Notes: a model not told the origin generated them from the letters alone. DNA of 25,293 bases from an uncultured Thermococci archaeon (GCA_964487115.1 CAZAPD010000045.1:1-25293), one strand, 5' to 3'. Counted from the stretch's first letter, positions 1 through 25,258 are shown. Translations and numbers: made by a program.

Positions 1-1
1 C

Positions 2-367: not shown

Positions 368-368
368 A

Positions 369-1733: not shown

Positions 1734-1760
1734 CAACTCACCTAATTGATAGTAGGATAT

Positions 1761-1782
1761 CAAAATATTTATATATCTTTTG
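1761..1782. promoter_or_regulatory. Bidirectional BRE/TATA element for cca and the AAA ATPase
   Basis: Near-palindrome CAAAATATTTATATATCTTTTG centred in the 75-bp divergent gap. Confidence 0.6.
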
Positions 1783-1808
1783 TTTGTAAATTGTCAATTG
1801 GTGGTGGA

Positions 1809-3646: not shown

Positions 3647-3780
3647 GTCACCACCGGGAAAAGTTGGAAATAGGAGGTTAAAGGAGTTTCCCCGGATAAT
3701 TCAAGACTTAAACGTTAATCATCACTATTACTAAAAGCAACATTCAAATGGAAATCTATAAAGAGAAAGAAAATAGAGAG

Positions 3781-3960
3781 TCAATGAGTAGTCTGGTTTT
3801 CACGGTAGTTCACCTTAGTTGTGCTGCACTGTGTATTGCCCAAGTAGTTGCCATATACAGGGGCTACATAATATGCCTTTTAGATCCATCTTAAGTATTA
3901 TCGCTCCCAACTCCAAAGGCTGCGGTCGCTACACCTGTTGCCAGAGTTCCTCTTAGAACA
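3781..3960 (-). pseudogene. Possible frameshifted 3' remnant of an unidentified gene
   Basis: Minus strand gives protein-like segments in shifting frames (GTLATGVATAAFGVG / AIILKMDLKG / AYYVAPVYGNYLGNTQCSTTKVNYRENQTTH*), followed by a T-rich tract. Confidence 0.25.
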
Positions 3961-4025
3961 AATGGAAAGGAAAGCCGGGTAAAAGAGCTGTATGATAGTG
4001 AAATCAGGAGACTTAAAAACAAAAC

Positions 4026-4487
4026 CTACTCCGTTACCACTACAGGAAACTCTTCCCACGGGAAAACTATCCATTTATCTGTCCTGAAAACATAGAAGTC
4101 AGGCATTACCTTTGTCCATGGCTTAACTGCAAGGCATGCTATTTTTATTTCAGAAGCTCTTAATCTTTTCACTTCATCGATAACAACCTCAAGGGTCTTT
4201 CCAGTATCGCTAACATCATCGACTATAACTACCTTTTTTCCCTCTAAAGAGCCATGAATCGGTATCATAATCTTCGGCTTTTCCATTCTTTCCTCAATAT
4301 CCTTGTAAAACTTGACGTCGATTATCTTGAGTTCTATATCTCCGAGGATATGACTAAGTCTTACAGCAGGGATCAACCCCCCACGTGCTATTCCGATTAT
4401 AACATCTGGATTATAGCTTCTTAATGCATCAGCGAGTGCAAACATGGCTCTATCTGTCTGCCACCATGTGAGATAAACTTTATCCAT
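4026..4487 (-). CDS. Purine phosphoribosyltransferase (HGPRT/XGPRT-like, type I PRTase)
   Basis: GIARGG, PRPP-binding loop VVIVDDVSDTGKTL, WIVFPWE. GGAGGTGA RBS. Confidence 0.92.
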   Translation of the reverse strand: MDKVYLTWWQTDRAMFALADALRSYNPDVIIGIARGGLIPAVRLSHILGDIELKIIDVKFYKDIEERMEKPKIMIPIHGSLEGKKVVIVDDVSDTGKTLEVVIDEVKRLRASEIKIACLAVKPWTKVMPDFYVFRTDKWIVFPWEEFPVVVTE

Positions 4488-4576
4488 GTTCTCACCTCCT
4501 TTGTATGCTTTTAGATTAAAAAGAAGAGCTTAAAAACTCAACGTTTACAAATTTTTGTCAAAATTGGAAAGAAGAA

Positions 4577-7321
<2,745 letters not shown>

Positions 7322-7931: not shown

Positions 7932-8498
7932 CTACTCCTCTTTGATCAGATTTCCTATAAACTCATGCAAGTTTTCTTCAACCCTAACGCGTCTGTAGAA
8001 GTTATATTGACCTATCAAAAATTCGTAGTGTTCTTTCTCGTCCCCTGCCAAAGACAGGAAAATTTCCCTGTACCTCTCATCGTCAAAGCTATCAGCTATG
8101 GATTCATATATCCTCTCAGCAAGCTTTTCAGAGTAGATTGCAATCTCCAGAACCTCAAGATAGTCACCGACGGTTTCTATGTCATGTTTGACTTCGTCCA
8201 CCCATGTTGAGGAAGAAACCTTGGGAAGTTGTCTATCTGGAAACAGCTCACTGAAAATTGTGAGAATTTTCTCTCTGTGCTCCTCTTCACTTTTGATGAA
8301 CTGCCTGAATCTTATTTTCGCGTGAAGCTCCTCGATTTTTTCCGAAAGCATTGTGTAAAGCCTGATAGCATCCTCCTCACCCTTAATTGCATAACCTAGT
8401 AACTGCTTAAGGGAGAGCTTTATAAGTTCTTTCAGAATCATGCTAACTCTTTCTTCAACCTTTCCATCAATATCGATGTTCTCCATGGGAATCCCCAT
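7932..8498 (-). CDS. Ferritin-like (rubrerythrin family) diiron protein
   Basis: AIKGEEDAIRLY...EEEH and EKLAERIY...DEKEH. No rubredoxin domain. The start could be 8486. Confidence 0.88.
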   Translation of the reverse strand: MGIPMENIDIDGKVEERVSMILKELIKLSLKQLLGYAIKGEEDAIRLYTMLSEKIEELHAKIRFRQFIKSEEEHREKILTIFSELFPDRQLPKVSSSTWVDEVKHDIETVGDYLEVLEIAIYSEKLAERIYESIADSFDDERYREIFLSLAGDEKEHYEFLIGQYNFYRRVRVEENLHEFIGNLIKEE

Positions 8499-8526
8499 TT
8501 ATATTTGTGAGCTCAAGGTTAAATAG

Positions 8527-9318
8527 TTAACCAGAACATTTCAGATAATCAAGCAGCTCTCTAATGCTGGGTAAGATCAAATCAGGCTTTATCCCACTTT
8601 TCTCAACATCTTGGAGGTTGTTGACTCCTGTAAGAACCATTATTGCCTTGGCTTTGATTTTTCTTGCAAATGCTATATCAGTATCAAGCCTATCTCCCAC
8701 AAACCATACTTCTTCTTCATCCAGCTTCTCTTTGACTATCTCCCATACGGGTTCGTAGGGTTTTCCTATTATCAATGGCTCTTTTTCTGTAGCGACTTTT
8801 AGAGCTGCAATAATTGAACCCGCTCCGGGTACTATTCCCTCTTCAGAAGGATACGTAGTATCAGGATTTGTTCCTATGAATTCCGCCCCGTTTCTGATGG
8901 CCAATGTTGCATATTTCAGCTTTTTGTAGGTTAGCTCAGTATCCAGTCCAACAACTACATAGTCTATCTCCTTCCATCTTTCTCCGGCTTCTTCAGGCCA
9001 TATTATCTCCCAGTTTATGCGTTTGATTTCCTCAATAAGCCCCCTCCCACCCACTACAAAGACTCTGCCTTTTTTGAAGTGTTTCTGGAGATAGCGGGCT
9101 GCAGCATACCCGGAGGTGATAATCTGCTCCTCATTAACGTCAATTCCAAATCTCAGAAGTTTTTCCCTGTACATTTTTGCAGTTTTAGTTGAATTATTGG
9201 TGAGAAAAATGAAAGGAATGCCTTTTTCCTTTAAAAAGTTGATAACCTCTTCCGCACCTTCTATAGGAGTGTTTCCCCTGTAGAGCACGCCGTCCATATC
9301 GAATATTATCCCGGTCAT
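8527..9318 (-). CDS. HAD-IIA (NagD-like) phosphatase
   Basis: FDMDGVLY, LTNNS, TNPD, GKP, VGDRLDTDI and VLTGV motifs. ATGA overlap with the upstream gene. Confidence 0.95.
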   Translation of the reverse strand: MTGIIFDMDGVLYRGNTPIEGAEEVINFLKEKGIPFIFLTNNSTKTAKMYREKLLRFGIDVNEEQIITSGYAAARYLQKHFKKGRVFVVGGRGLIEEIKRINWEIIWPEEAGERWKEIDYVVVGLDTELTYKKLKYATLAIRNGAEFIGTNPDTTYPSEEGIVPGAGSIIAALKVATEKEPLIIGKPYEPVWEIVKEKLDEEEVWFVGDRLDTDIAFARKIKAKAIMVLTGVNNLQDVEKSGIKPDLILPSIRELLDYLKCSG

Positions 9319-10022
9319 ATTTGACTCACTGTCGCCAGCATTTTCTTTATACTTTTTAAAGTTTCTATAAGATTGTTTAGATCCTGTTCAATTCCAAGTT
9401 CTTTTGCATTCAACTTAACGGTTACAGTAGTATCTATAGGCACTTCGACTTCTTGATTTATGGGGACTTCGATGACTTTATTAAAAGGCACCTTGATTTT
9501 CATGTTCATAGGTACATTGACGTCGAAATTGAGAGGAACTTTTACAGGGAAGGTCTTATTAACATGAACGAGTACGGTAGTATTTATGGGAACATCAACA
9601 TATGTATCTATTGGAAATGTTATCTCTGTTTCTTCACCGTTGATAACTGTCGTGGTGGTAACGTTCTGAAGTATGTGTGTCCTAACGGTAGTGACGACTG
9701 GGACCTCCACATAGTCATCGACCGGTACATTTAACTCCAACATTTTATTTACAGGAACTGTCAAATTTTCCTTTATTGGTACCTCAAAAACTGTGGAAAC
9801 TGGAACCTTGGCTTTTAGGTTTATTGGCACTTTTATTTTATCTCTAACCGGAACGGTGACTATAATATCCTGGGTCTTTATTTTTTCCAGTGATGAAATG
9901 GTGGCATCTATATTTGATGCAGCCATTGAGGCTCCTTTGTAGGCGATGTACAATTCGGCTAAATTCAAAACTAACAAGAAAATCACAATTCCTGTGAGGA
10001 TCCCGGTTAGTACCTTCCCCAT
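9315..10022 (-). CDS. Membrane-anchored Val-Pro octapeptide-repeat protein (predicted long beta-hairpin), unknown function
   Basis: Hydrophobic N-terminus (aa ~4-29), about 16 xxxVxVP[IV] repeats, central INGE turn, amphipathic C-terminal helix. GGAGGTGA RBS. Confidence 0.85.
   Translation of the reverse strand: MGKVLTGILTGIVIFLLVLNLAELYIAYKGASMAASNIDATISSLEKIKTQDIIVTVPVRDKIKVPINLKAKVPVSTVFEVPIKENLTVPVNKMLELNVPVDDYVEVPVVTTVRTHILQNVTTTTVINGEETEITFPIDTYVDVPINTTVLVHVNKTFPVKVPLNFDVNVPMNMKIKVPFNKVIEVPINQEVEVPIDTTVTVKLNAKELGIEQDLNNLIETLKSIKKMLATVSQI
9411..9869 (-). repeat. Protein-level 8-residue Val-Pro repeat array (aa 52-204)
   Basis: Pro (or His) at aa 58, 66, 74, 82, 90, 100, 108, 116 and 137, 145, 153, 163, 171, 179, 187, 195. 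Confidence 0.9.
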
Positions 10023-11082: not shown

Positions 11083-11643
11083 TCAGGGTTTCTTAATGAG
11101 CTTCACCTCTATGGGAGTCACATCCTTTATCTCGCCTAAGAGGACAAAAATCAGTGTCAGACCCACAATGACAAGTGCTTGTGCTCCTGCATTCGGTAAT
11201 CTGTTTTTTATGGCATATAAGAACGCTATCAATAAGGTCCACCATCCTATCGCATAAAATGAGGCCTTTCCGAATCTGCGGTAAGCTATGTAAAACGCCA
11301 CAAATCCAAGAACTGGTAGGAAGGTGTAGAGTGTGAAGGCCGAAATTGTGAGCACACCGAGGAGTATAAATTCCTCCTTTGAAGGGCTTTTAAGTTCAAC
11401 ATCCCTGAGGATGTCATCGAGCACTACTATAATAGAAAAAGCTACTGTTACTCCATTTATTCCATCCAAGGTATATATTGAGCCGGGATTAAATGAAAAC
11501 GCAATTATTATGACATATATGTAAAAGATCAGCAGAGCGATATCTCTGCTCTTCAGCGCAACAGCATATATTATTGGTGTCAGGAGGAGTATGTAATTCC
11601 CCGTAAGTATGGCGGTTAAGATTGAAGCTATTATCCCTATCAT
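11083..11643 (-). CDS. Multi-pass membrane protein of the MoxR cluster
   Basis: About 6-7 hydrophobic segments. ATGA overlap with the DUF58 gene. Confidence 0.8.
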   Translation of the reverse strand: MIGIIASILTAILTGNYILLLTPIIYAVALKSRDIALLIFYIYVIIIAFSFNPGSIYTLDGINGVTVAFSIIVVLDDILRDVELKSPSKEEFILLGVLTISAFTLYTFLPVLGFVAFYIAYRRFGKASFYAIGWWTLLIAFLYAIKNRLPNAGAQALVIVGLTLIFVLLGEIKDVTPIEVKLIKKP

Positions 11644-12920
11644 AGTTTCTCCACCACCTTTGGAATTAGATCTTTTGGTCCTACTTCAATTATCTTTGTT
11701 TTCCCCATGAGTTTTTTCAGAAGTTTTTTCCTCTCCACATAGCGCATGTAAAGGAGTTTGAGCTTTTCTTCATTTAGGGTGTTCTTATCCATAAAAAATA
11801 TCGGGTTTGGATACAGAACTACTACTGTGGAGCCTCTCTTTTCGAGAATGTTTACAGCTTTCAGTATTTCCCTCGGATGAAGCCCTATATCATCTACTAT
11901 TATTACATAGGAATTGGCCTCAACTTTGAGGGCCGCTCTCACGAGACCCGATGTATAAATCCCCCTGCGCAATGAAAGAATCTTCCGGGTTAAGTGGGAT
12001 TCTCTCTCAAGGGATGAAGCCTTTATAGGAGGGATCCCTTTCTGGGGTGCAAGTTTAAGCTCTCCTACAAATGATTTTCCATCCCTTGGATTCGGAACAA
12101 CCTTAACGACCTTATCAGTATCATAGGCTATTCCGTTTATCATGTAGCCAAATTTCCTGAAATACTGAACAAGTTGAGCCGTTATCAGGATCAGGTAGTC
12201 GACTTTCAGGTTCTTCAGCTCGCGCCTGAATTTTCTATCGACATTTATTAGTAAATATATTTCGCTGAGGGTTTCCCTGTAGAATTCCTTAACTATGAGT
12301 TCGCCCAAGCGTGAGGTTGATTTCCAGTCGATTTTTCTCACATCGTCTCCTGGACGGAATTCCCTTAACTCCTTGAAATCCATGGTTTCAAGCCCTATAC
12401 CAAGTGCTCTTTCCACTTCAGCTATAGCCTCAACGGGTCTTTTTATTTTCAATGCCTCTCTGATACTCCTTGCAGAGGGCAGAACAAGAAGTTTCTCCTC
12501 CTTAAGGTGCATCTCCTTATAGAATAGACCGGGTTCATCCTCAAAGATCACATCTTCTCTAAGCGGTATGTATCCCTTTCTCTGGGGGACTATCGTCTGT
12601 TCAATGAATTTCACTTCTCCTGGTTTGAGTTTAACCTCAATATCTCTTGCAAAAACGAATTCAGATTCCTCTTTTATCTTGAGCCTGCCTGCGGTTTCTG
12701 AGAGATTTTCTACTTTGATACTGGCCTTCAGAGGTTCAAGTTCTGTACCTCTCTCAGGCAATCTCCTCTGCACTTTTATTTTCGGATTAAAGCTGAGTTT
12801 TGCCATAGTGTAGTATCCGGTTATTCCGGCAGCTATCAGGGCAGGTAGGATATTCCCTGTTAAGTATGCTCCTGCAGACAGTACTGCAGCCAGAGAGAGA
12901 AGTAAATCAGTTCTCTTCAT
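11640..12920 (-). CDS. DUF58 (COG1721) protein, MoxR partner
   Basis: Two N-terminal TM segments, an Ig-like region and FKELREFRPGDDVRKIDWKSTSRLGELIVKEF. Confidence 0.92.
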   Translation of the reverse strand: MKRTDLLLSLAAVLSAGAYLTGNILPALIAAGITGYYTMAKLSFNPKIKVQRRLPERGTELEPLKASIKVENLSETAGRLKIKEESEFVFARDIEVKLKPGEVKFIEQTIVPQRKGYIPLREDVIFEDEPGLFYKEMHLKEEKLLVLPSARSIREALKIKRPVEAIAEVERALGIGLETMDFKELREFRPGDDVRKIDWKSTSRLGELIVKEFYRETLSEIYLLINVDRKFRRELKNLKVDYLILITAQLVQYFRKFGYMINGIAYDTDKVVKVVPNPRDGKSFVGELKLAPQKGIPPIKASSLERESHLTRKILSLRRGIYTSGLVRAALKVEANSYVIIVDDIGLHPREILKAVNILEKRGSTVVVLYPNPIFFMDKNTLNEEKLKLLYMRYVERKKLLKKLMGKTKIIEVGPKDLIPKVVEKL

Positions 12921-13837
12921 TCAGTGGGCACCTCTACCCTGTCTAAGGCATCCATTACAATCTCCTTGCCTGTTATGTTGTCTATTTCATATTCGGGCTT
13001 AACTATAATTCTATGAGCCAGAACCGGGAGGGCAAGCTTCTTAACATCGTCTGGTATGACATAGTTCCTACCGCTGAGGTATGCATGCACCCTTGCAGCA
13101 TAAAGAAGGTGTTCTCCAGCTCTTGGTGAAGCTCCAAGTATTACCCTCTCATCCAATCGAGTCTCTTTCACTATTGAGTAAATGTAATCCACTATTGCAT
13201 CGCTAACGTGAACCTTTCTGAAGTCTTTCTTCGCATGCAGTATTTCCGATGATGGAACTACTTGTCTGGCTGCACTGAATTTACCAAGAGATTTTCTTTT
13301 GAGCATAAGTTTCTCCTGCTTTTCATCCAGATATGTTAAGTCTATCTTCATCATGAATCTATCTACCTGAGCCGCTGGAAGGTTGTAAACGCCCTCAAGC
13401 TCGATGGGATTTCTTGTCGCTATCACTATAAATGGTTCTGGAAGTCTAAGTGTCACACCTTCTATTGTGACCTGCCTCTCTTCCATGGCCTCAAGTAAAG
13501 CTGACTGGGTTTTAGGCGATGCCCTGTTTATTTCATCCACAAGAACAACATTGGCAAATATAGGACCCTTTCTCATTTTAAAGTCTCCTGTTCTCATGTC
13601 ATAGAACGTGTGTCCTAAGATATCTGCGGGTAGGATGTCTGGGGTCATTTGAATTCTAACAAACTTTAAACCAAGTGTGCTTGCAAAGTTTTTGCTGAGG
13701 GTTGTCTTGGCTATCCCAGGGATGCCCTCCAAGAGAATATGACCTTCAGCTATAAGAGAAATTGTCATGAGCTCGATTATTTCATCCATACCCACCACAG
13801 CTTTTCCAACTTCCGCTTTTATTTTTTCAAGTATCAT
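12917..13837 (-). CDS. moxR: MoxR family AAA+ ATPase
   Basis: HILLEGIPGIAKT, RIQMTPDILPADILG, DEINRASPKTQSALLEAMEE, ATRNPIE, DRF and GASPRA. ATG 13837 follows GGGTGA (alternative GTG at 13846). Confidence 0.96.
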   Translation of the reverse strand: MILEKIKAEVGKAVVGMDEIIELMTISLIAEGHILLEGIPGIAKTTLSKNFASTLGLKFVRIQMTPDILPADILGHTFYDMRTGDFKMRKGPIFANVVLVDEINRASPKTQSALLEAMEERQVTIEGVTLRLPEPFIVIATRNPIELEGVYNLPAAQVDRFMMKIDLTYLDEKQEKLMLKRKSLGKFSAARQVVPSSEILHAKKDFRKVHVSDAIVDYIYSIVKETRLDERVILGASPRAGEHLLYAARVHAYLSGRNYVIPDDVKKLALPVLAHRIIVKPEYEIDNITGKEIVMDALDRVEVPTE

Positions 13838-13838
13838 G

Positions 13839-14840
13839 TTAATCACCCATGCGTTCTATCATTGCAAGAACTTCCTTTTCATTCCATCCGTTCCTTTTTG
13901 AGAGTTGGATTGCCAGGGTTATTAAATCTTCTTTTTCCCCCCTGAAAAATCTGTCTATAAGGGATGATATAGGCTTAAGGAGATAATCCAAAACCCCAAT
14001 TTCAATCAGGAGTATAACAATGCCCATAATTATTAACATTTTTCTTGCCTTGTCGACAGGTAGGATTCTTGTAATTGTAACTGTTCCGGCACTATAGAGG
14101 TTAAAGTCCATGTGATGGGCTTCATCGATGTATACAGTGCCTCTACCAATATAGTCTATCAGATTGCTTATAAAGGGCTTGTTTTCAGTAAAAAATTGAT
14201 TTGTAAGGATATCTGGATCCGAGAGCACAATAACCTTTCCATCTCCATAAGGAATCTCGGTGAGTATGGGAAACTGGCCTTGATGGAAGTTGACCATAGC
14301 AACTTTACTTGAATAGACCTCTCCTTTTCCTGAGGCTGTAATGGCCGAGGGTTCGTTCATTATTATCCTGCTCACGTTTCTTCCAAGCACCGGATCATTT
14401 ATCCTGACGGTTACTATAATCCTATCATCCTTATTATAGAAAAAGTCTCTCAGTGGAGATTTTGAGATTCTCACAGAGAGATTAAGCTCCTTGAGTATCT
14501 GATCCCCATTTCCAAAGTCATCAGCTATAAAGAGCGTGTTTCCCCTTTTTACAAAGTCCTTGATCTGAGCGAGTTCAGCTGAGGTGTATGATACATCAGG
14601 AGCAATTACAATGAGAACCCCATTTTTATCCTTCAAATTCTCCATGTCAAAAGACTGGAAGAGAGGCACTACATCCACACCTTTCGAATGGAGGAGAATG
14701 GCAAATCTCGCTGTTCCATCCCAAGCAGTATTGAACATGCTGTAGGGAGTTGAGCTCTTGAAGATGGGAACTGTCAGTGGCATTGCTACAAGCGCCATCA
14801 TGAGTACTATCCCGGTGGTGTATACCACAAACTTTCTCAT
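13839..14840 (-). CDS. DUF4350 domain membrane protein
   Basis: N-terminal TM, YSMFNTAWDGTA, FVKRGNTLFIADDFG, GDGKVIVLSDPDILTN, DEAH and C-terminal TM. Confidence 0.88.
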   Translation of the reverse strand: MRKFVVYTTGIVLMMALVAMPLTVPIFKSSTPYSMFNTAWDGTARFAILLHSKGVDVVPLFQSFDMENLKDKNGVLIVIAPDVSYTSAELAQIKDFVKRGNTLFIADDFGNGDQILKELNLSVRISKSPLRDFFYNKDDRIIVTVRINDPVLGRNVSRIIMNEPSAITASGKGEVYSSKVAMVNFHQGQFPILTEIPYGDGKVIVLSDPDILTNQFFTENKPFISNLIDYIGRGTVYIDEAHHMDFNLYSAGTVTITRILPVDKARKMLIIMGIVILLIEIGVLDYLLKPISSLIDRFFRGEKEDLITLAIQLSKRNGWNEKEVLAMIERMGD

Positions 14841-16558
14841 CTATACCCCTCCAGAACCTTTTTGACTCTCTCTCTGAACTCCTTCTCTTCCTCTCCTGTG
14901 AGCGGCATGCTTCCATAGACCAGTTTCTCATGAAGCTCCGTTATTCGTTTCATGTCTTCATATATTTTGCTATTCCTAAAGAGCATGAGAGCTTCTCTTG
15001 GAGTGAGATTCTCGCTGATTCCCAAAATTTTCCTGAGGAATCCATAAAGCCCTGCCATGTCTTCGGGCAGACTAACCGCAGGTTTCTCCTCTTCAGGAAG
15101 TTTAGGATATCCTTCTCTCCTCACCATAGTCTTCTCCTTATGAGGCTTCTTTGTGTATATGGATGCTAAGATTAGGAATGCAAGAATTAAGAGTATCATG
15201 ACATACCTTTTCGCCATGCTTGGGGGATTGACAACATTTAGGATAATCACATTTGATATTGCTCCTGCATGGATGCTATCTCCCCTAAATTTTACATATA
15301 CCTTCAGTTTTCCTGTATCGTTAGGCTTTATGAAAAAGGAAAAACTGCCATTTACTGCGGTTATACTGATATAAGGTCTATTATTTAAATATACCACGAG
15401 TGGAGCTGAGAGGGAGGGTGTCATATTACCTGTGAATTCTATTTTCTCTCCTTTATACCCCTCCGAAGGACCGCTGAGTGTTATTGATGTCGGATATTTG
15501 CTGAAGATTAGGGAAATGTTCTTTGCTGCTGCTGAATGTGCATTATCACCCCGGAATCTGGCAGTGAGCTGTATGATTTGCGGAATATTTGAGGTATAGA
15601 TTGTGTAAAATGCCCCGTTTTCATCTGTAAGTAGTGTTCTGTTTCCAATAGAAATTTCCTTATGTTTAAGTGCATTCCCATAGTAGTCTATCAGCTGTCC
15701 TGAGACATTTAACTCGGAGCCCATCAGTCCACTGAATGTATCGCTCATTATGAAAAGCGAAGGGATTTTTCGAACTGTGATTGGGATTGTATTCGACCTA
15801 TTGGTTCCTTGGAGGGCATATATGGTGTAATTACCCAGCTTTCTAAAGGAGTACTCCACTGAGAACATGCCTTTCTTGGGGGAGGTGAATATCACCATTG
15901 AGCTGTTCTTTCCGAGTATAATTATCTGAATGCTATCATTTGAGGGAGTCGAGCCATATATTGTTATATTTTCGTGGAGGATGGGTTTTGTATTTGAAAT
16001 AAAGATTTCAAATTTTTCTGCATGAATCTTTGTGGAGGTTATCATTTCAAGAATCTTCCGCAGATAGCTTCGTACCCTTTCAGTCTGAGATGTAAAATTA
16101 AGAATTTTCGTTCCATTCATAAGTTTTATTGAATCAATAAGTTCGAGATCCTTATTCATAGTCTCAACCGTCCTTCGTATCCCTGCCACAAGTGCGCTGT
16201 TCGGCTCCTTCTGAAACTGAAGCACGAGTGAGGTTAACTCCTCGAGGTTTTGAGAAAAGTCATAAAATGGTGGTATCACCTCCATGACCTTAGCATTGAT
16301 GCCCTTATTTTGATAATAGATTGATTCGAGCTGTATAAGTTCAAGCTCGGTTGTGGTGTTGTTTGCAAGTTGAATGCTGTAGGGATTATTTTGGAGAGAA
16401 TACCTGAGTGAGTGTTCAAATTTAACAAGGGTCTTTGAGAAATATTCATATATGAAAATATCTCGACTAATGGGTTTTTCAACACCTTTTGCCGAGACTG
16501 AACCAATGCTGGAGCATATTATTAGAGCCACCATTATTACACCAAGAACCCTTTTCAT
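14837..16558 (-). CDS. Secreted, membrane-anchored Ig-like repeat protein with DUF4129-like cytoplasmic tail
   Basis: Signal peptide MKRVLGVIMVALIICSSIGSVSA, helical domain, about 3 beta-rich repeats (TDENGAF, ARFRGD, VKFRGD), TM segment, then LTPRE...HEKLVYG. More than 10 sequons. Confidence 0.8.
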   Translation of the reverse strand: MKRVLGVIMVALIICSSIGSVSAKGVEKPISRDIFIYEYFSKTLVKFEHSLRYSLQNNPYSIQLANNTTTELELIQLESIYYQNKGINAKVMEVIPPFYDFSQNLEELTSLVLQFQKEPNSALVAGIRRTVETMNKDLELIDSIKLMNGTKILNFTSQTERVRSYLRKILEMITSTKIHAEKFEIFISNTKPILHENITIYGSTPSNDSIQIIILGKNSSMVIFTSPKKGMFSVEYSFRKLGNYTIYALQGTNRSNTIPITVRKIPSLFIMSDTFSGLMGSELNVSGQLIDYYGNALKHKEISIGNRTLLTDENGAFYTIYTSNIPQIIQLTARFRGDNAHSAAAKNISLIFSKYPTSITLSGPSEGYKGEKIEFTGNMTPSLSAPLVVYLNNRPYISITAVNGSFSFFIKPNDTGKLKVYVKFRGDSIHAGAISNVIILNVVNPPSMAKRYVMILLILAFLILASIYTKKPHKEKTMVRREGYPKLPEEEKPAVSLPEDMAGLYGFLRKILGISENLTPREALMLFRNSKIYEDMKRITELHEKLVYGSMPLTGEEEKEFRERVKKVLEGYR

Positions 16559-16581
16559 GCCTATCACTTCCATAAAGAATA

Positions 16582-17646: not shown

Positions 17647-17660
17647 CTACCTCCTCTGCT

Positions 17661-17690
17661 TAATTAAATGTCATTAAATATCATTAAAGC
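17661..17690 (+). promoter_or_regulatory. Three phased direct repeats T(A/C)ATTAAA, candidate RHH operator
   Basis: taattaaatg tcattaaata tcattaaagc, exact 10-bp period, between the TATA box and the RBS. Confidence 0.6.
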
Positions 17691-17704
17691 TGGAGGTGTT
17701 TGCT

Positions 17705-17932
17705 ATGGCAGATGAAAAGAAGTATACAACTGTTTCGATTCCAAAACCCCTCTATGACAAGATTAAAGCAAGAATAGAAGGAACTGGCTTTACTTCAGTT
17801 TCAGACTATGTTACATATGTTTTGAGGGAGGTCTTGGCAAGCTTGGAAGAAGAGGAGAAGGAGGAGGTATTCAGCGAAGAAGAAGAGGAGAAAGTTAAAG
17901 AAAGACTTAGGGCTCTTGGATACCTCGATTGA
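17705..17932 (+). CDS. Ribbon-helix-helix (CopG/Arc/MetJ) regulator with acidic linker and RLRALGY tail
   Basis: YTTVSIP (beta strand), KPLYDKIKARIE, GFTSVSDYVTYVLREVL. GGAGGTG RBS. Confidence 0.9.
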   Translation: MADEKKYTTVSIPKPLYDKIKARIEGTGFTSVSDYVTYVLREVLASLEEEEKEEVFSEEEEEKVKERLRALGYLD

Positions 17933-17948: not shown

Positions 17949-17959
17949 AGGTGATAATT

Positions 17960-19099
17960 ATGGTTTCTAAGCCGCATGGTGGGAAGTTAATCAGGAGAGT
18001 GGCCGCTGAAAAGACGAGAATGAGGATTCTGAGTGAGCAGCATGAATACCCTTCCGTTGAGATAGACCATGGAAAAGCGATTGACCTTGAGAATATAGCC
18101 CATGGAGTCTACTCTCCACTGAGAGGTTTCCTTACGAGTGACGACTTTCAAAGCGTCCTTGATCATATACGTCTCAGCGACGACACCCCTTGGAGTATTC
18201 CAATAGTTCTCGATGTTGATGAGCCCAATTTTGAAGAGGGTGATGCCATTCTGCTCTATTACAAAGACACTCCCATAGCGAGAATGCATGTGGGTGAGAT
18301 TTACACATACGACAAGAGGGAATTTGCCCAAAAAGTATTCAGGACTACGGATAAAGCTCATCCGGGCGTTGTTAAAGTGTATTCAATGGCCAAATACCTT
18401 GTCGGCGGTGAAATCGAGCTCCTCAATGAAGTGCCGAATCCCTTCGAGAAGTACACCCTGAGGCCAGTTGAGACGCGGGTGCTCTTTAAGGAGCGCGGGT
18501 GGAAAACCATTGTGGCTTTCCAAACAAGGAATGTGCCACATCTCGGTCATGAATACGTGCAAAAAGCAGCTTTAACGTTCGTTGATGGCCTTTTTATCAA
18601 CCCAGTCCTTGGGAAGAAGAAGAGAGGGGATTATAAAGATGAAGTAATAATCAAGGCTTATGAAGCCCTCTTCAAGCACTACTACCCGAGAAATGCGGCG
18701 ACGCTCGCAACAGTACGCTATGAGATGCGTTATGCTGGACCAAGGGAGGCAATCCACCATGCAATAATGAGGAAGAACTTTGGAGCAACTCACTTCATAG
18801 TTGGGAGAGATCATGCAGGAGTTGGCGATTACTACGGCCCCTACGAGGCTTGGGAACTTTTCGATGAGTTTCCCGATCTGGGAATAACCCCAATGTTCAT
18901 ACGTGAGGCTTTCTACTGCAGGAGATGTGGGGGAATGGTTAATGCCAAAATATGCCCACACGAGAGAAAGTTTCACGTACATATAAGCGGAACAAAGCTC
19001 AGGAGAATGATAACGAGCGGTGAAAAGCCGCCTGAATATATGATGAGACCTGAGGTCTATGAAGTGATAAAGAGCTTTAAGAGGCCCTTTGTAGAGTGA
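17960..19099 (+). CDS. sat: Sulfate adenylyltransferase (ATP sulfurylase)
   Basis: PHGGKL, YSPLRGF, FQTRNVPHLGH, MRYAGPREA, GRDHAGVG, zinc site CRRC...CPH, SGTKLR and MRPEV. Confidence 0.98.
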   Translation: MVSKPHGGKLIRRVAAEKTRMRILSEQHEYPSVEIDHGKAIDLENIAHGVYSPLRGFLTSDDFQSVLDHIRLSDDTPWSIPIVLDVDEPNFEEGDAILLYYKDTPIARMHVGEIYTYDKREFAQKVFRTTDKAHPGVVKVYSMAKYLVGGEIELLNEVPNPFEKYTLRPVETRVLFKERGWKTIVAFQTRNVPHLGHEYVQKAALTFVDGLFINPVLGKKKRGDYKDEVIIKAYEALFKHYYPRNAATLATVRYEMRYAGPREAIHHAIMRKNFGATHFIVGRDHAGVGDYYGPYEAWELFDEFPDLGITPMFIREAFYCRRCGGMVNAKICPHERKFHVHISGTKLRRMITSGEKPPEYMMRPEVYEVIKSFKRPFVE

Positions 19100-20037
19100 T
19101 TTCCATGTTAATTATACATCACTGGGACACAGATGGCATAACTTCAGCGGCCCTTGTTGCAAAAGCTTTGAGGTTAGAAGACTTCACTAACCTGAGCCCC
19201 CCAATAGGAGAGTTCAGATTTGACCTGAGGATTAGAAAAGCCATTGAAGAGGCCAAAAATATCTACGTCCTCGATCTCAATTTAGTCCACGAAGTCGAGG
19301 GCATAGAGAAAGAGACCGTCTTCATAGACCACCACATCCAGCCGAGAATCAGAAATCCAAGAATCAAGCAGATAAATCCATTACTGGAGGGAAATGAAGT
19401 CCCCTCAGCCTCCTTCGTGGTTTCATCTTATTTTTCCCTCTGGAACGCTTGGAGCGCTTTGGGAGTAATCGGCGATATTGGAAGCAAAGCCTTTGAAATT
19501 CCAAAAGTTGGAGAGCTCCTAAGAAAAGAAGGGCTTACAAAGGAGGAAGCTTTGAGATTAGTTCAGCTCATTGATTCAAATTACATCGTAATGGAAAGGG
19601 AGAGCGTGGAGAAGGCCGTTGAAATACTTTTAAGCTCAACTCTCAGAGAGCTTTTGGAGTACGAGCCGTGGATCAAAAACGTTGAGGCTATAGAAAGAGC
19701 AATCCAAGATGCCTTCTCCCATGTAGAGCCAAGGGATGGGTTTGCGTTCATAGAATTCGTGAGTCCATTCAATATAATCTCAAAAATTGCGAGGAAAGCA
19801 GTATGGAAAGCTGGCTATGAAGGGGCAATCGTGGTGAACAGGGACTTCCACGGGAAAGGCCAGATATACTTTAGAATCTCCTCCAAGTTGAAAGGGAGAA
19901 TAAACATGAGTGAGATTATTGGCACTCTCAAAGAAAAGGGCTTCAACGCAGGTGGAAAAAGCGAGGTTTTGGGCTGCATTTGCGAAAAGGATAGAATAAG
20001 CGAAGCTTTAGAGATAATTAACTCTTATCTGAGGTGA
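19096..20037 (+). CDS. DHH family phosphoesterase, likely PAP (3'-phosphoadenosine 5'-phosphate) phosphatase
   Basis: HHWDTDG, VLDL, IDHH, GD and AGGK motifs. The PAP role is inferred from context. The start may be ATG 19105. Confidence 0.85.
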   Translation: MISMLIIHHWDTDGITSAALVAKALRLEDFTNLSPPIGEFRFDLRIRKAIEEAKNIYVLDLNLVHEVEGIEKETVFIDHHIQPRIRNPRIKQINPLLEGNEVPSASFVVSSYFSLWNAWSALGVIGDIGSKAFEIPKVGELLRKEGLTKEEALRLVQLIDSNYIVMERESVEKAVEILLSSTLRELLEYEPWIKNVEAIERAIQDAFSHVEPRDGFAFIEFVSPFNIISKIARKAVWKAGYEGAIVVNRDFHGKGQIYFRISSKLKGRINMSEIIGTLKEKGFNAGGKSEVLGCICEKDRISEALEIINSYLR

Positions 20038-20042
20038 TTGAG

Positions 20043-21434
20043 ATGGAAAACGTTAAGAAAGTCTTTGTTATCGGTTTAGATTCAGCTCCTCCAGAGCTTT
20101 TGTTCAACAGGTTTTTGAATGACCTACCAAACATAAAGAAGCTCCTGAAAAAATCAATTTATGGCCCGATGCAGAGCACGATTCCAGCAATCACTATTCC
20201 TGCATGGATGGTCATGGCCACAGGCAAAACACCCGGAGAGCTCGGCTTATACGGCTTTAGACATAGAAAGAAGGGAACGTACAACGACATCTGGATTGCC
20301 CACGCATTAATGGTTAAGGAGAAGGCCGTTTGGCACCACATAGCTGAGAAGGGTAAAAAATCAATTTTAGTTGGTGTTCCTCCGAGCTATCCCCCAAGGC
20401 CAATCAACGGTTACCTCGTGAGCTGTTTCATAACTCCAGATGCTTCAGTTGACTATACCTATCCAAAGGAACTCAAAGGTGAGATTGAGCGCTTAGTCGG
20501 CGAGTACATCTTTGATGTAGTCTTCAGGAAAGAGAATAGAGATGAGGTTAAGGAGCAACTCTGGGAGATGACAAAGAAGAGGTTTGAGGTTATCCGCTAC
20601 TTAATCCAAGAAAAGGAGTGGGATTACTTTCAGTTCGTGGATATAGGTTTGGATAGAGTCCACCACGCCTTTTGGAAGTATTTCGACGAGAACCACCACC
20701 TCTATCCCGGCGACGACAACCCCTACAAAAACGTAATTCCCGATTATTACAGGCTCCTCGATGAGGAGATAGGCAGAACATTGGAGCTCTTGGATTTAGA
20801 TGAGACCGCTATCATAATAGTTTCAGACCACGGGATAAAGGCCATGAAGGGAGCTTTCGCAATAAACCAGTGGCTGATTGAAGAGGGTCTCTTGAAGATT
20901 AAAAACCCCGAGATTCTCAAGGAAGGAAGACAGGTTAGATTCAACGAACTTAAGGTTGACTGGAGCAAAACGATTGCTTGGGCTTGGGGTGGCTACTACT
21001 CAAGAGTCTTCCTCAACGTCAAGGGGAGGGAGCCTCAAGGAATCATTGAGCCCGAGAACTACTACAAGGTTAGGGACGAGATTGCCGAGCTCATAAAGGG
21101 CATTAGAGGACCAAACGGTGAGAAGTGGAACACTAAAGTGTTCTATCCGGAGGAGATATATCCAATCGCCAAAGGCGATAAGCCAGACATGATGGTTTAT
21201 TTGGACGATTTGAACTGGAGAGCTGCTGGAACTCTCGGTTATGAGACGCCATACCTCTTAGAGAATGACTTGGGCCCAGATGATGCGGTTCACGCTGAGT
21301 ATGGAGTGTTCTCCCTGTATCTGCCAAGCATGGAGGAGGCTAAGCAAACCCAGCTCACAATTTACGACTTCGCACCAACAGTGCTCAAGCTCTTTGGAAT
21401 AAGAAAGCCTCTTAGAGGGAGGAGTGTAATATGA
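20043..21434 (+). CDS. Alkaline phosphatase superfamily enzyme (NPP/phosphodiesterase-like, COG3379 type), cytoplasmic
   Basis: VIGLDSA, STIPAITIPAW (Thr nucleophile position), TGKTPG, DRVHH, SDHG, DDAVH and DFAPT. No signal peptide and no CxPxR sulfatase motif. Confidence 0.9.
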   Translation: MENVKKVFVIGLDSAPPELLFNRFLNDLPNIKKLLKKSIYGPMQSTIPAITIPAWMVMATGKTPGELGLYGFRHRKKGTYNDIWIAHALMVKEKAVWHHIAEKGKKSILVGVPPSYPPRPINGYLVSCFITPDASVDYTYPKELKGEIERLVGEYIFDVVFRKENRDEVKEQLWEMTKKRFEVIRYLIQEKEWDYFQFVDIGLDRVHHAFWKYFDENHHLYPGDDNPYKNVIPDYYRLLDEEIGRTLELLDLDETAIIIVSDHGIKAMKGAFAINQWLIEEGLLKIKNPEILKEGRQVRFNELKVDWSKTIAWAWGGYYSRVFLNVKGREPQGIIEPENYYKVRDEIAELIKGIRGPNGEKWNTKVFYPEEIYPIAKGDKPDMMVYLDDLNWRAAGTLGYETPYLLENDLGPDDAVHAEYGVFSLYLPSMEEAKQTQLTIYDFAPTVLKLFGIRKPLRGRSVI

Positions 21435-22003
21435 GCGAGAAGGGAGGAGCAAATGCCCAAGAAGTATCTCTTAGGACGCTGAAGCAGGGATTTACCATCT
21501 GGCTCACCGGACCGAGCGGAGCAGGTAAAACAGTTTTGGCACATGCTCTAAAGAAAAAGCTCAAAAGAATGGGTTATAGAGTGGAAATTTTAGATGGTGA
21601 TGTGATAAGAAAAACTCTCTATCCTGACTTGGGCTTCAGCAGGGAAGCGAGAGAGATGCACAACCGTATAGTTATCCACATGGCCAAGCTCCTATCGAGA
21701 AACGGCGTCATAACAATCGTCTCCTTGATTTCACCGTACAGAGCCGTCAGGGAATATGCGAGGAAGGAGATAGGCAACTTCATTGAAGTCTATGTCTATG
21801 CTCCCCTTGAAGTGAGGATCCAGAGGGATCCAAAGGGTCTCTATGCCAGAGCCATAAAGGGGGAGATTAGGGGATTGACGGGCTATGATGGAGTCTATGA
21901 GGAGCCAGAGAGCCCGGAAGTTAAGGTGGACAGCTCAAAAATGACTCCTGAGGAAGAGGTGGAGGCAGTCTTAAGCAAGGCCAGAGAGCTTGGCTATCTA
22001 TGA
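21431..22003 (+). CDS. cysC: Adenylylsulfate (APS) kinase
   Basis: TIWLTGPSGAGKT, LDGD, LGFS, ISPY, RDPKGLY, TG...YEEP. Confidence 0.97.
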   Translation: MSEKGGANAQEVSLRTLKQGFTIWLTGPSGAGKTVLAHALKKKLKRMGYRVEILDGDVIRKTLYPDLGFSREAREMHNRIVIHMAKLLSRNGVITIVSLISPYRAVREYARKEIGNFIEVYVYAPLEVRIQRDPKGLYARAIKGEIRGLTGYDGVYEEPESPEVKVDSSKMTPEEEVEAVLSKARELGYL

Positions 22004-22012
22004 GGTGGTTTA

Positions 22013-22753
22013 ATGCTAATTTTTATTTTTCTCGGTTTCCTCGTTGGATTTTTAGTTGGACTGACAGGTGTCGGTGGAGGAGCCTTAATGACGCCTTCAC
22101 TCATTTTTCTGGGGGTTGAGCCACTAACCGCTGTTGGCACCGATTTAGTTTACGCCACGATTACAAGGGTTTTTGGTGTGCTCTTCCACAACAAAAAGAG
22201 GAACATCAGATTTGATCTGGCTCTGAGACTTTTTGCTGGAAGTTTACCCGCAATTTTACTCGGGTCTGTTCTGCTTAGGATTATTGATAAAAGCACCCTT
22301 AACAATTATCTCACCTTATTGCTTGGTACAATTCTTGTCCTTAGTTCCTTCCTCAGCTTAATTAAAGGGGAAATTCATGTTCCCCTGAGACCACGGAGGG
22401 AATATCTCTATCTCTTAGGGTTTATTGTCGGTTTAACCGTCCAGTTCACCTCAGTAGGAGCTGGGGTCATTGTTAGCTTTGCCCTGATGAATCTGGCTAA
22501 AATCAGTCCCAAGGAAGTTGTTGGCGTTACGATATTTTATGGTCTGGCCTTGTCCTCCTTCAGCGCCCTAAACTATGCGTTTCTGGGAAGTGTGAATTAC
22601 CACTTAGCCTTAGTGTTGATTGCCGGCACTTTGCCGGGTGTTTATTTAGGAACCCATATAAATGCCAGAACTGATAGGGATAAGTTGAAGAGAGTTATTA
22701 ACGTCATAATACTAGCCATTGGGCTCCTGATATTGGTTCAGAGAATAGTTTGA
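22013..22753 (+). CDS. TauE/SafE (TSUP) family transporter
   Basis: GFLVGLTGVGGGALMTP, AVGTDL and TSVGAG. About 8 TM segments. Confidence 0.92.
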   Translation: MLIFIFLGFLVGFLVGLTGVGGGALMTPSLIFLGVEPLTAVGTDLVYATITRVFGVLFHNKKRNIRFDLALRLFAGSLPAILLGSVLLRIIDKSTLNNYLTLLLGTILVLSSFLSLIKGEIHVPLRPRREYLYLLGFIVGLTVQFTSVGAGVIVSFALMNLAKISPKEVVGVTIFYGLALSSFSALNYAFLGSVNYHLALVLIAGTLPGVYLGTHINARTDRDKLKRVINVIILAIGLLILVQRIV

Positions 22754-23265: not shown

Positions 23266-23631
23266 TTAAATTGTTGCGGTTAACGGAGGAAGTCCTTCAT
23301 TTGTGCTCAAGAATTTCATGCTATCTTCTCTTCTTTTTCCTCTCTGCAAAACCTGGATAAAAATGGATATGACAATTTCTTTTTCTGTGATTCTAATTTC
23401 AGCATGAAGTTGTTGAATTCCTCTAGAAAGCAGGTAGGGGCTAATTTTAAACTTTTTGGAAGCATCTAGCATTTCAAATCCAACAACCGCTAATTCACCA
23501 TTAATCTTGCCTAAATCTAAAATTATATCGCCTAACTGAACCGAGCTTTGGTATTTTCCTTCAGGAATTCTTACAAAGAGAGAATCCCCTAATGGGTCAT
23601 AATCGATTATCTTTATCCTGTCATTTTTCAT
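23266..23631 (-). CDS. DUF2283 family protein (putative antitoxin)
   Basis: DYDPLGDSLFVRI...SVQLGDIILDL...VVGFEMLDASK pattern. Overlaps the upstream toxin-like gene. Confidence 0.85.
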   Translation of the reverse strand: MKNDRIKIIDYDPLGDSLFVRIPEGKYQSSVQLGDIILDLGKINGELAVVGFEMLDASKKFKISPYLLSRGIQQLHAEIRITEKEIVISIFIQVLQRGKRREDSMKFLSTNEGLPPLTATI

Positions 23632-23924
23632 TTGTTTTCATCCTCCGTCTTTTTTCCTGTAGATATGCAGTTATCAGGGTTAAATACAGTTTGCTTTTAG
23701 CCTGCCTAGCCTTAATTACAACAACCAAATCCTTGTCATCAGGTAGTGGATAGTAGAGGAGGAATTTCTCGCCAACTTCATCTTGCTGAATTATTCCCAC
23801 AATCCTCTTTGGATTGTTAAACACTTCTCGTATCCCACTTATGAGGTATGTTTCTTCCAGCCAGACGGTTTTGAAAATGAACAGTCTCTATGAACTCAAT
23901 GTTCTTTGAGCGAATGAGCTTCAT
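23621..23924 (-). pseudogene. DUF4258/RelE-like putative toxin, +1 frameshift
   Basis: MKLIRSKNIEFIETVHFQNRLAGRNIPHKW joins IREVFNNPKR...DLVVVI...LITAY if one G is removed from TGGG (ccc at 23834-23836). Confidence 0.75.
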
Positions 23925-24260
23925 GAGTTGATAGCAGTCTATATATCCTCATTTAATTGTAGGGGAAATATCTTAAAAATAGACGATGGAAATGAACTTT
24001 CATTATATCCTAGGATAGGTCAAAAGGTCAGAGGATATATTCTCTCGCGGCTTCATCTTTTTGCAACAAATTTTTCTGTGATTTCTTGTGCTGTTTTTGA
24101 ATCCGATACCAGCTTCAGATTTTGTGATTCATATCTTTTTGAAAGGAGATTTTAATGTTCGTTTTGCTGGGGGTGAGAATTACTTTTGAAAAGAACGATT
24201 ATTCAACATAAGAGAAAATGCTTAAATATCAAAACAGTTATTTCATACTTCGGTGGTAAA

Positions 24261-25258
24261 ATGAAGGTTCTGATAATGGCTGGCGGTTATGCCACCCCCC
24301 ACTGTGGCCCATAACAAAGAATAATCCCAAGGCACTGCTGCCCGTTGGAAGCGGGGTGATTCTGGATTACATTCTTGAAAAAACACGAGAGCTTGATATG
24401 GAGACATACATTTCAACAAACAGATTTTTTGAGCATCATTTCAGACCCTATGCAGAGAGACAAGGAGTTGGGCTTATAGTCGAGGACACGCTTTATGAGG
24501 AAGAGAAGCTCGGCACGATAGGTGCCATAAACATGGCTGTTGAAAAGCTTGGCCTTGATGATTATCTGATCATCGCAGGAGATAACCTCTTTTCATTCAA
24601 CCTTAAGGACTTTCTGGAGAGATATGAGGGAAAGCCCCTCATAGCGGTCTATGATGTTGGTGATTTTGAGCTGGCAAGGAGGTATGGTGTGGTGGTTCTT
24701 GAGGGTGATAGGATTATAGATTTCCAAGAAAAGCCTGCAGAGCCCAAATCCACACTCATAAGTACTGGTGTTTATGCCTTCCCGAAAGAGATAATGGTGA
24801 GAATTAGCGAGTATCTACAAGACGGCAATCGTGATTCTCCCGGCTACTTCCTCCAGTGGCTTTTATCTGAGGGTGTTGAGATACATGCATACAAATTTGA
24901 TGAATACTGGTATGATATAGGGTCAGCCGATAGTTATCTTGAGGCTTTGAGGACTCTACTAAAGGAAAGCCACATAGAGGAGATTCAGATCAGCCCCTAC
25001 TCCAAAATAATTTCCCCTGTTGTGATAAAGAAGGGCGCGAAAATTTTGGGGAGGTCAATGATAGGACCCTACGCATACATTGGCGAAAACTGTATTATTG
25101 AAAGCTCAGACGTGAGCGACTCCATAATTTTCAAGAACACGATAATCAGAAACTCAACGATCTGGCGTTCAATTATTGATGAGAAGTGTGAGATAAGGAA
25201 TTTGGAGCTTAAGAAAAGCTTAGTTGGAGGACATGCTAAGATACAGAGGGGAGACTGA
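24261..25258 (+). pseudogene. Sugar-1-phosphate nucleotidyltransferase (NDP-sugar synthase, COG1208) with left-handed beta-helix tail, frameshifted at codons 12-13
   Basis: MKVLIMAGGYAT in one frame and LWPITKNNPKALLPVG...AGDN...YGV...EKP...WYDIG in another. The break is the C6 run at 24295-24300. Confidence 0.88.

Follow-up and report, generated by a model that had tools for sequence, protein, structure and literature searches.

How a phosphatase-like enzyme comes to be embedded in an operon that makes 3'-phosphoadenosine 5'-phosphosulfate (PAPS), and which enzyme then spends this PAPS, are the questions raised by a stretch of DNA of 25,293 nucleotides from an uncultured Thermococci archaeon (GCA_964487115.1, CAZAPD010000045.1:1-25293; the whole stretch is called the window hereafter). 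The operon encodes an ATP sulfurylase (Sat), a DHH-family phosphatase, an enzyme of the alkaline phosphatase (AlkP) superfamily, an adenosine 5'-phosphosulfate (APS) kinase (CysC), and a TauE-family permease. An earlier note on this DNA saw the AlkP-fold enzyme as the only catalytic gene left unassigned, and proposed that it was a non-canonical sulfotransferase. The cassette is, however, an already published archaeal PAPS-synthesis cassette, known as TON_1704-1707 in Thermococcus onnurineus and as PYCH_17520-17570 in Pyrococcus yayanosii, and the counterpart of the supposedly unassigned enzyme, TON_1705, was published as a pyrophosphatase. With a probability of about 0.6, the AlkP-fold enzyme of the window hydrolyzes the inorganic pyrophosphate (PPi) released by Sat, and the PAPS is consumed by an ordinary sulfotransferase, the gene of which belongs to a glycan cluster on a different contig. 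The finding is thus an ordinary instance of a described cassette, and its value lies mainly in annotation.

The cassette comprises six genes, all on the forward strand. The five genes listed earlier are real, but a sixth, located directly upstream, had been overlooked: it encodes a small ribbon-helix-helix (RHH)/CopG-like regulator of 78 aa (17696..17932), called as an open reading frame (ORF) without any Pfam or NCBIfam match, and its likely true start is the ATG at 17705, preceded by GGAGGTG. Next comes sat (17951..19099; Pfam PUA_2 and ATP-sulfurylase, E 4e-92; NCBIfam, 545.7 bits against a cut-off of 387), for which the likely start is the ATG at 17960, preceded by AGGTGA. The third gene (19096..20037; Pfam DHH) encodes a phosphatase of 3'-phosphoadenosine 5'-phosphate (PAP, or pAp), which matches the PAP phosphatase of Methanothermococcus thermolithotrophicus (PDB 8a8k) with a phmmer E-value of 4.7e-140. 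It is followed by the gene of the cytoplasmic AlkP-fold metalloenzyme (20034..21434; 466 aa; PF01663 Phosphodiest, E 2.6e-48), of the nucleotide pyrophosphatase/phosphodiesterase (NPP) type, by cysC (21431..22003; Pfam APS_kinase, E 1e-57; NCBIfam apsK, 229.5 bits against a cut-off of 138.7), and finally by the gene of a TauE/SafE-family (TSUP) anion permease (22013..22753; Pfam TauE, E 4e-46). As called, the junctions consist of three 4-bp overlaps and one 9-bp gap; the tight sat-DHH-AlkP/NPP-cysC-TauE operon described earlier is therefore borne out by the ORF calls and by Pfam, with no gap above 9 bp. No NCBIfam model matches the AlkP-fold and RHH proteins, nor the 244-aa and 578-aa proteins of the window. 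A Pfam scan of 24 ORFs of the window (the window only, not the genome) found no PAPS_reduct, NIR_SIR, or Sulfotransfer domain. The absence of reductase and sulfotransferase genes noted earlier thus holds for the window, but not for the genome, in which a sulfotransferase is encoded on contig C96.

For T. onnurineus, the source cited for the TON_1704-1707 cluster, with TON_1705 as an inorganic pyrophosphatase, is reportedly Lee et al. 2009 (J Bacteriol 191:3415). A passage of 2015 lists, for strain NA1, TON_1704 as APS kinase, TON_1705 as pyrophosphatase, TON_1706 as PAP phosphatase, and TON_1707 as ATP sulfurylase (PMC4463584). These are the same four enzymes in the same order as in the window, with the pyrophosphatase between the DHH gene and cysC, while the RHH and TauE genes of the window are additional, being unlisted in that passage. 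The account of P. yayanosii CH1 given in PMC8268124 covers the same six genes as the window: copG (PYCH_17520, the counterpart of the RHH gene), ATPS (17530), pApase (17540), a type I phosphodiesterase/nucleotide pyrophosphatase (17550), and APSK (17560), with TauE adjacent. It also describes the solved structure of the DHH pApase, and its authors speculated that PYCH_17550 degrades PPi. Both TON_1706 and PYCH_17540 have been demonstrated to be pApases (PMC4463584, PMC8268124). The window therefore matches the published cassettes in gene content and order (RHH/copG, sat, DHH, PF01663, cysC and, optionally, TauE), and the same order is found in related loci. At the protein level, the AlkP-fold enzyme of the window shares 88% identity with P0003 of P. 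yayanosii (99% of the query aligned) and 68-90% with the remaining named proteins listed, from Methanocaldococcus, Archaeoglobales, Korarchaeum, and Asgard. Orthologues within its own family are 70-97% identical to it, a range into which TON_1705 presumably falls. The sulfate pathway described for M. thermolithotrophicus has Sat, CysC, and a DHH-type PAP phosphatase in common with the window, but this organism reduces PAPS via an APS-reductase-like enzyme and Fsr (PMC10322725), a branch not found in the window's genome.

Identification of the PAPS consumer required leaving the window for its genome (2.06 Mb, 132 contigs, 96.5% complete). Whole-genome searches with the Pfam families Sulfotransfer_1, _2, and _3 gave no match, but these blanks are false negatives, and PF03567 gave no match in any control genome. 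The sulfotransferase was found via a neighbour of the cassette in a related Thermococcus locus (L024), which matches Sulfotransfer_3. Its homologue in the window's genome, C96:1690-2706 (338 aa; 49% identity, E 2.5e-97), scores 27.6 bits with Sulfotransfer_1 (cut-off 22) and 27.4 bits with Sulfotransfer_3 (cut-off 27) when scanned directly. It carries the motifs GTPRGGTTW and RHPCATIAS, the cores of which (GTPRxGTTW and RHPxxxxxS) are invariant in 27 relatives. Sulfotransferases account for 36 of the 37 PDB matches of its family profile and, with an AlphaFold2 (AF2) model of pLDDT 93.8, all fold matches listed are PAPS sulfotransferases; its relatives are annotated as sulfotransferases in many Thermococcus species. 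Judged from sequence and model, C96:1690-2706 is a canonical PAPS-type sulfotransferase in its predicted activity. The gene is flanked by those of a Wzx-type flippase and of a 609-aa membrane protein, and the latter is followed by genes for a cytoplasmic PF01663 paralogue, a GT4 glycosyltransferase, an AsnB-like amidotransferase, a UDP-GlcNAc 2-epimerase, a DUF354 protein, and a UDP-glucose dehydrogenase. The PF01663 paralogue (C96:4540-5973, reverse strand) is 24% identical to the operon enzyme, and likewise starts without a leader peptide. A canonical sulfotransferase elsewhere in the genome is precisely what the earlier note had named as speaking against its own proposal; since this ordinary sulfotransferase sits in a sugar-coat gene cluster of the same genome, the assignment of the AlkP-fold enzyme as a sulfotransferase is not supported.

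The association between cassette and sulfotransferase extends beyond this genome, as seen from a census of 97 Thermococcaceae species genomes with three types of sulfotransferase query. The cluster had been said to occur in some other Thermococcales, which is correct as regards its presence but understates its extent, as an orthologue of the AlkP-fold enzyme is encoded in 66 of the 97 genomes. C96-type sulfotransferases occur in 20 genomes, a second type in six, and a third (Sulfotransfer_2) in G076 only. Canonical sulfotransferases are thus found in 25 of the 66 operon-bearing genomes (four of these, G009, G064, G069, and G072, hold fragments) against none of the 31 operon-free ones; as the genomes are related and not independent, these counts constitute a pattern, not a statistic. 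The sulfotransferase gene lies less than 7 kb from the AlkP gene in 11 genomes. In G041 and G014, RHH, sat, (DHH), AlkP, cysC, TauE, Wzx, and sulfotransferase genes form one string, with Wzx and sulfotransferase proteins 46-54% identical to their C96 homologues, and the start of Wzx overlaps the end of TauE in three relatives. In G076, the operon is located 19 kb from an island containing four sulfotransferases, an AlkP paralogue, a sulfatase-family protein, and GT4 glycosyltransferases. Because both enzymes coexist in one gene string in relatives, the AlkP-fold enzyme does not stand in for a canonical sulfotransferase. PMC8268124 remarks that a sulfotransferase gene adjoins the cluster in other archaea; its authors identified none in P. 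yayanosii, for which they did not know the PAPS sink, whereas the window's genome has one on C96. Beyond this remark, a full-text search, judged by titles and the beginnings of abstracts, yielded no description of the link between operon and sulfotransferase in Thermococcales. The nesting of sulfotransferases within operon-bearing genomes, together with the contiguous RHH-sat-DHH-AlkP-cysC-TauE-Wzx-sulfotransferase string of several species, offers a testable route to sulfated envelope glycans or exopolysaccharides (EPS) in hyperthermophilic archaea.

The catalytic site of the AlkP-fold protein provides a second line of evidence. The protein scores 165.8 bits with PF01663, against a gathering cut-off of 23, and 19.7 bits with PF00884, under its cut-off of 25. 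Seven residues, D16, T54, D207, H211, D265, H266, and H420, are invariant in its family (28 sequences, down to 44% identity), and the six Asp and His residues among them are attributed, as metal ligands, to site 1 or 2. With the AF2 model (pLDDT 88.9, pTM 0.90), the top Foldseek matches are ENPP1/3, the Xanthomonas NPP (Xac NPP), ENPP5/6/7, and phosphonoacetate hydrolase (PhnA), with a probability of 1.00 at 12-16% identity, and the 36 matches listed, which reach down to rank 50, include no sulfotransferase. The protein has no match to a Sulfotransfer family, and the P-loop-like 5'-phosphosulfate-binding and the 3'-phosphate-binding motifs were not found in it. A phmmer comparison with PDB sequences gave no match at E <= 0.01; the family profile gives weak matches (E about 1e-3), in which T54 falls opposite the nucleophilic Thr in both Xac NPP and PhnA, and the SDHG motif is aligned too. 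With the NPPs (Xanthomonas NPP 2gsn, ENPP1/3) and PhnA, which are PF01663 proteins as well, the window enzyme shares its fold (TM up to 0.66 on target), the Thr nucleophile, and the Asp/His metal-ligand motifs. It differs from the NPPs by its sequence, only 12-16% identical, by its cytoplasmic location without a signal peptide, by about 80 extra residues, by an Ala in place of Asn, and by its reported substrate, which is PPi and not a nucleotide. This Asn, which follows the nucleophile motif, is not kept: the motif reads TIPAW in all 28 sequences, versus TFPN in Xac NPP and TNPN in PhnA. In NPPs, the Asn of T-x-P-N contacts the phosphoryl group. As far as its residues tell, the site is an NPP-type two-metal site for phosphoryl transfer via Thr.

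Such a site would not be expected to carry out sulfate transfer. On PAPS, the NPP mechanism would attack at phosphorus and release free sulfate. EptA and LtaS, which had been invoked as transferases of the superfamily, do have the AlkP-superfamily core, a Thr nucleophile, and a covalent intermediate. Both, however, are membrane-anchored enzymes of the PF00884 branch, which have their catalytic domains outside the cytoplasm and transfer phospho-substituents, whereas the window enzyme is a soluble PF01663 protein.

Gene neighbourhoods and fusions point to the step that the enzyme would serve. Neighbours were counted in 55 related loci from public genomes, each gene being counted only where the locus has room for it. 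The gene adjoining that of the AlkP-fold enzyme is cysC in 43 of 47 loci (42 by filter, plus L018, the overlapping cysC of which escapes the filter), DHH in 36 of 49, and sat in 24 of 41, while TauE lies downstream in 16 of 42. Among 52 longer relatives of the enzyme (817-2330 aa), 49 are fusions of PUA_2, ATP-sulfurylase, and Phosphodiest domains, in which the AlkP part is 42-50% identical over 96-98% of its length; none is fused to CysC. The fusion with Sat ties the enzyme to the PPi-producing step, as is predicted if it is a pyrophosphatase. Some eukaryotes also fuse a pyrophosphatase with ATP sulfurylase/APS kinase, and the fold used is that of family I pyrophosphatases. In both cases, PPi removal would be physically coupled to sulfate activation, although the Sat-fused relatives rely on the AlkP/NPP fold. 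Such pyrophosphatase fusions are alluded to in the review PMC11210485, citing Bradley et al. 2009; TON_1705 is not mentioned in this review.

Two further features of the related loci concern their history. The AlkP-fold protein of the window is 84-85% identical to Methanocaldococcus proteins (L010-L012), yet most orthologues in the window's own genus are only 70-75% identical to it; the existence of two operon lineages suggests lateral transfer among hyperthermophiles. In addition, an inserted toxin-antitoxin-like pair of DUF4258 and DUF2283 genes separates AlkP from cysC in L006, L007, L009, L014, and L024. The DUF2283 gene of the window, together with a 67-aa ORF, lies instead downstream of TauE (23266-23824, reverse strand).

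From these elements, the cassette would operate as follows. TauE, presumably a sulfate importer in both direction and substrate, would bring in sulfate, which Sat, according to its family, would convert with ATP into APS and PPi. The NPP-fold enzyme would clear the PPi, as reported for the orthologue TON_1705, and thereby pull the unfavourable Sat reaction. CysC, again by family assignment, would convert APS and ATP into PAPS and ADP. The C96 sulfotransferase, encoded amid Wzx, glycosyltransferases, and sugar-nucleotide enzymes, would then pass the sulfate on to a glycan, either lipid-linked or nucleotide-linked. The DHH enzyme would hydrolyze the by-product, recycling the PAP left from PAPS use, as shown for close homologues, and regulation of the operon is predicted to fall to the RHH protein encoded upstream. 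In this scheme, the most likely role of the phosphatase-fold enzyme is that of the cassette's pyrophosphatase (about 0.6).

Several observations weigh against this assignment. TON_1705 acts slowly on PPi, with a kcat of 2.1 s-1, a Km of 18.8 uM, and a pH optimum of 9.5 (Table 1 of PMC9653972); its kcat/Km, 1.1e5, compares with 2.7e7 M-1 s-1 for Ton1914, the housekeeping pyrophosphatase of the same organism (PMC9653972), so that a dedicated pyrophosphatase is not obviously needed. Moreover, TON_1705 is assigned to the family of the window enzyme through the gene order given in papers, not through sequence comparison. In 17 of 41 loci, mostly from Archaeoglobaceae, sat is missing upstream while the AlkP gene remains joined to cysC, and usually also to DHH, which weakens a pure Sat-helper role. 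Across 17 complete loci, the conservation of the AlkP-fold protein (mean identity 76.5%) equals that of sat (75.8%) and cysC (76.2%), the DHH protein reaching 57.1%. The operon and the sulfotransferase are on two different contigs, C45 and C96, and no end-overlap of C45 with any other contig was found. Finally, 41 of the 66 operon-bearing genomes have no sulfotransferase detectable by the three queries. For these species, about 60% of the operon-bearing ones, which have no recognised PAPS consumer, the question raised by the earlier note is a real one, but not for the window's genome.

A role in nucleotide rather than PPi hydrolysis is unlikely, although it has some arguments in its favour. 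The substrate of this nucleotide pyrophosphatase/phosphodiesterase would then be an adenylate of the pathway, for instance APS or PAPS, hydrolyzed as a safety valve, or by-products derived from ADP/ATP, and PPi hydrolysis would be a side activity. The nearest folds, ENPP1/3 and Xac NPP, cleave nucleotide phosphoanhydrides, the enzyme is kept with cysC and DHH in Archaeoglobaceae loci that have no adjacent sat, and the low kcat on PPi (PMC9653972) could be read in the same way. Nevertheless, hydrolysis of APS or PAPS would be futile inside an operon that makes both. The fusion with Sat better fits PPi removal, and the replacement of the Asn of TFPN by Ala (TIPA) leaves the nucleotide-type site incompletely kept.

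The pyrophosphatase reading is also compatible with a regulatory addition involving the RHH protein, homologues of which immediately precede the cassette in 43 of the 55 related loci. This protein ends with an acidic stretch and a ...RLRALGYLD tail (...KVKERLRALGYLD). Across archaeal phyla, its 40 C-terminal residues (...FSEEEEEKVKERLRALGYLD) hardly vary between 46 ORFs from 43 loci, and are better conserved than the DNA-binding part. It is quite doubtful, but conceivable, that the AlkP-fold enzyme or CysC docks this tail, the occupancy of the enzyme feeding back on transcription, as in 'trigger enzymes'. In favour of such docking are the strong conservation of the tail, the uniqueness of the motif, as no other frame in the window's genome ends in it, and the similar C-terminus of CysC (...EEEVEAVLSKARELGYL). 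Against this, such a tail is reminiscent of the C-terminal helix that APS kinases ordinarily have, so that the likeness may be a structural coincidence. Just 5' of the RHH gene, the candidate promoter region 17655-17692 contains a TATA-like element, ATATTTATATA, and a tandem repeat, TCATTAAAT(G/A)TCATTAAA, which are possibly promoter and operator.

The operon-bearing species without a detectable sulfotransferase leave some place for an AlkP-superfamily enzyme as PAPS consumer. In G002, the closest relative, with an AlkP-fold protein 97% identical to that of the window, the RHH-sat-DHH-AlkP-cysC-TauE-Wzx string continues with sulfatase-family, short PF01663, and GT2/GT4 genes, and includes no sulfotransferase. 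No PF00685 or PF13469 match was found at E <= 0.1 in G002, G012, and G088, while the control G076 gave four to five matches and G074 one weak match. Additional AlkP-superfamily genes recur in the glycan islands of PAPS operons, including that of G002, and encode either PF01663 paralogues (about 290-480 aa) or PF00884 'sulfatase' proteins. Examples are the C96 paralogue described above (L061 = C96:4540-5973, reverse strand), L062:3199-4479 and 5410-6276, L064:5630-7060 and 8235-9614, and L066:12794-14266 and 15064-15966. It is highly unlikely, all the same, that the PAPS of these 41 species, which include G002 and also a P. yayanosii-like genome, is spent by an AlkP-superfamily enzyme. The candidates, each of small probability, would be the NPP-fold protein welded to cysC, or the PF00884/PF01663 paralogues of the adjoining glycan islands. 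Were this the case, such an enzyme would represent a new fold class of sulfotransferases, and the slow pyrophosphatase activity would be a side reaction.

For the operon enzyme itself, the original proposal was a PAPS-dependent sulfotransferase with a sulfo-Thr intermediate, for which the acceptor would be a sugar or a lipid-linked glycan. This is very improbable. It would fit the tight linkage with cysC, which persists without an adjacent sat, the conservation shared with sat and cysC, the slow pyrophosphatase activity reported for TON_1705 (PMC9653972), and the genomes devoid of a detectable sulfotransferase, to which can be added four Archaeoglobi genomes and one Methanocaldococcus genome in which the C96 type is absent. 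However, the orthologue is a reported pyrophosphatase (PMC4463584, PMC9653972), the NPP-type two-metal Thr site is complete and would attack PAPS at phosphorus, the long relatives are fused to Sat and never to CysC, and one to four canonical sulfotransferases coexist with the enzyme in the same cluster of relatives, in addition to the one present in the window's genome.

The destination of the PAPS can also be approached from the reductive side. NIR_SIR sulfite reductase gave no match in the 96.5%-complete genome. The strongest PAPS_reduct protein of the genome is encoded on contig C30 (631 aa; PUA, PAPS_reduct, and two [4Fe-4S] motifs; E 5.6e-47). It stays under the cysH cut-offs (TIGR00434, 50.9 vs 165.1; PRK02090, 75.2 vs 154), and is a member of an NCBIfam equivalog named 'hypothetical protein'. 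Proteins of this type occur in 95 of the 97 family genomes (79 of the 79 high-quality ones), regardless of the operon. In Thermococci, Methanocaldococcus, and Nanobdellati loci, the surroundings of the cassette contain glycan genes, among them those for NDP-sugar synthases, rhamnose genes, flippases, STT3, and GT2/GT4 glycosyltransferases. As for the products, the EPS of Thermococcus litoralis carries sulfate and phosphorus substituents, according to the review PMC4189415. The genomic context thus supports an operon that feeds sulfation and not assimilation, and a use of PAPS for putative sulfated surface glycans; on this point, the earlier suggestion of sulfated envelope glycans finds support. 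The least probable of all readings, an assimilatory cassette whose PAPS would serve cysteine synthesis after reduction to sulfite and sulfide, and for which the C30 PUA-PAPS_reduct-ferredoxin protein would be the reductase, draws on the published name 'sulfate assimilation cluster', on the strong PAPS_reduct domain with its two [4Fe-4S] motifs, and on the putative PAPS and sulfite reductases named in T. onnurineus (PMC4463584), but is countered by the spread of the C30-type protein (95/97 genomes, vs 66/97 for the operon), its scores below the cysH cut-offs, its equivalog name, and its RNA-binding-type PUA domain, by the lack of NIR_SIR in the genome, and by sulfotransferases that strictly track the operon. 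The label of the Thermococcaceae cassette should accordingly read 'PAPS supply for glycan sulfation', not 'sulfate assimilation'.

The flanks of the cassette in the window had been described as containing sequon-rich surface proteins and an NDP-sugar synthase. The 578-aa sequon-rich protein (14837-16573, reverse strand) is real, and has 16 N-x-S/T sequons besides a signal peptide and a membrane segment at its C-terminus. So is the NDP-sugar synthase, a sugar-1-phosphate nucleotidyltransferase (24186..25258, forward strand, with its main ORF at 24356-25258; Pfam NTP_transferase, from profile position 33), but its 5' end is frame-broken. The break is next to a C6 run, about 13 codons into the gene, with MKVLIMAGGYAT in one frame and ...LWPITKNNPKALLPVG in another, and may be an assembly error or the mark of a pseudogene. 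An intact homologue is found at L044:2104-3153, and homologues lie near the cassette in 10 loci.

The sequon-rich protein ends a MoxR AAA+/DUF58/DUF4350 operon (11083-16573, reverse strand), which is unrelated to the PAPS cassette by its gene content and is absent from the cassette flanks in the relatives examined. The beginning of the window (1-7300), encoding a CCA-adding enzyme, an AAA_14/DUF4143 ATPase, and a ribonucleotide reductase, has a GC content of about 54-58%, versus 43.2% for the genome and about 40% for the rest of the window; it could be foreign DNA or the result of a chimeric contig. Finally, in a Thermococcaceae metagenome-assembled genome, a dTDP-glucose 4,6-dehydratase-type gene near the cassette (L020:9289-11808, forward strand) is split by a LAGLIDADG-containing intein.

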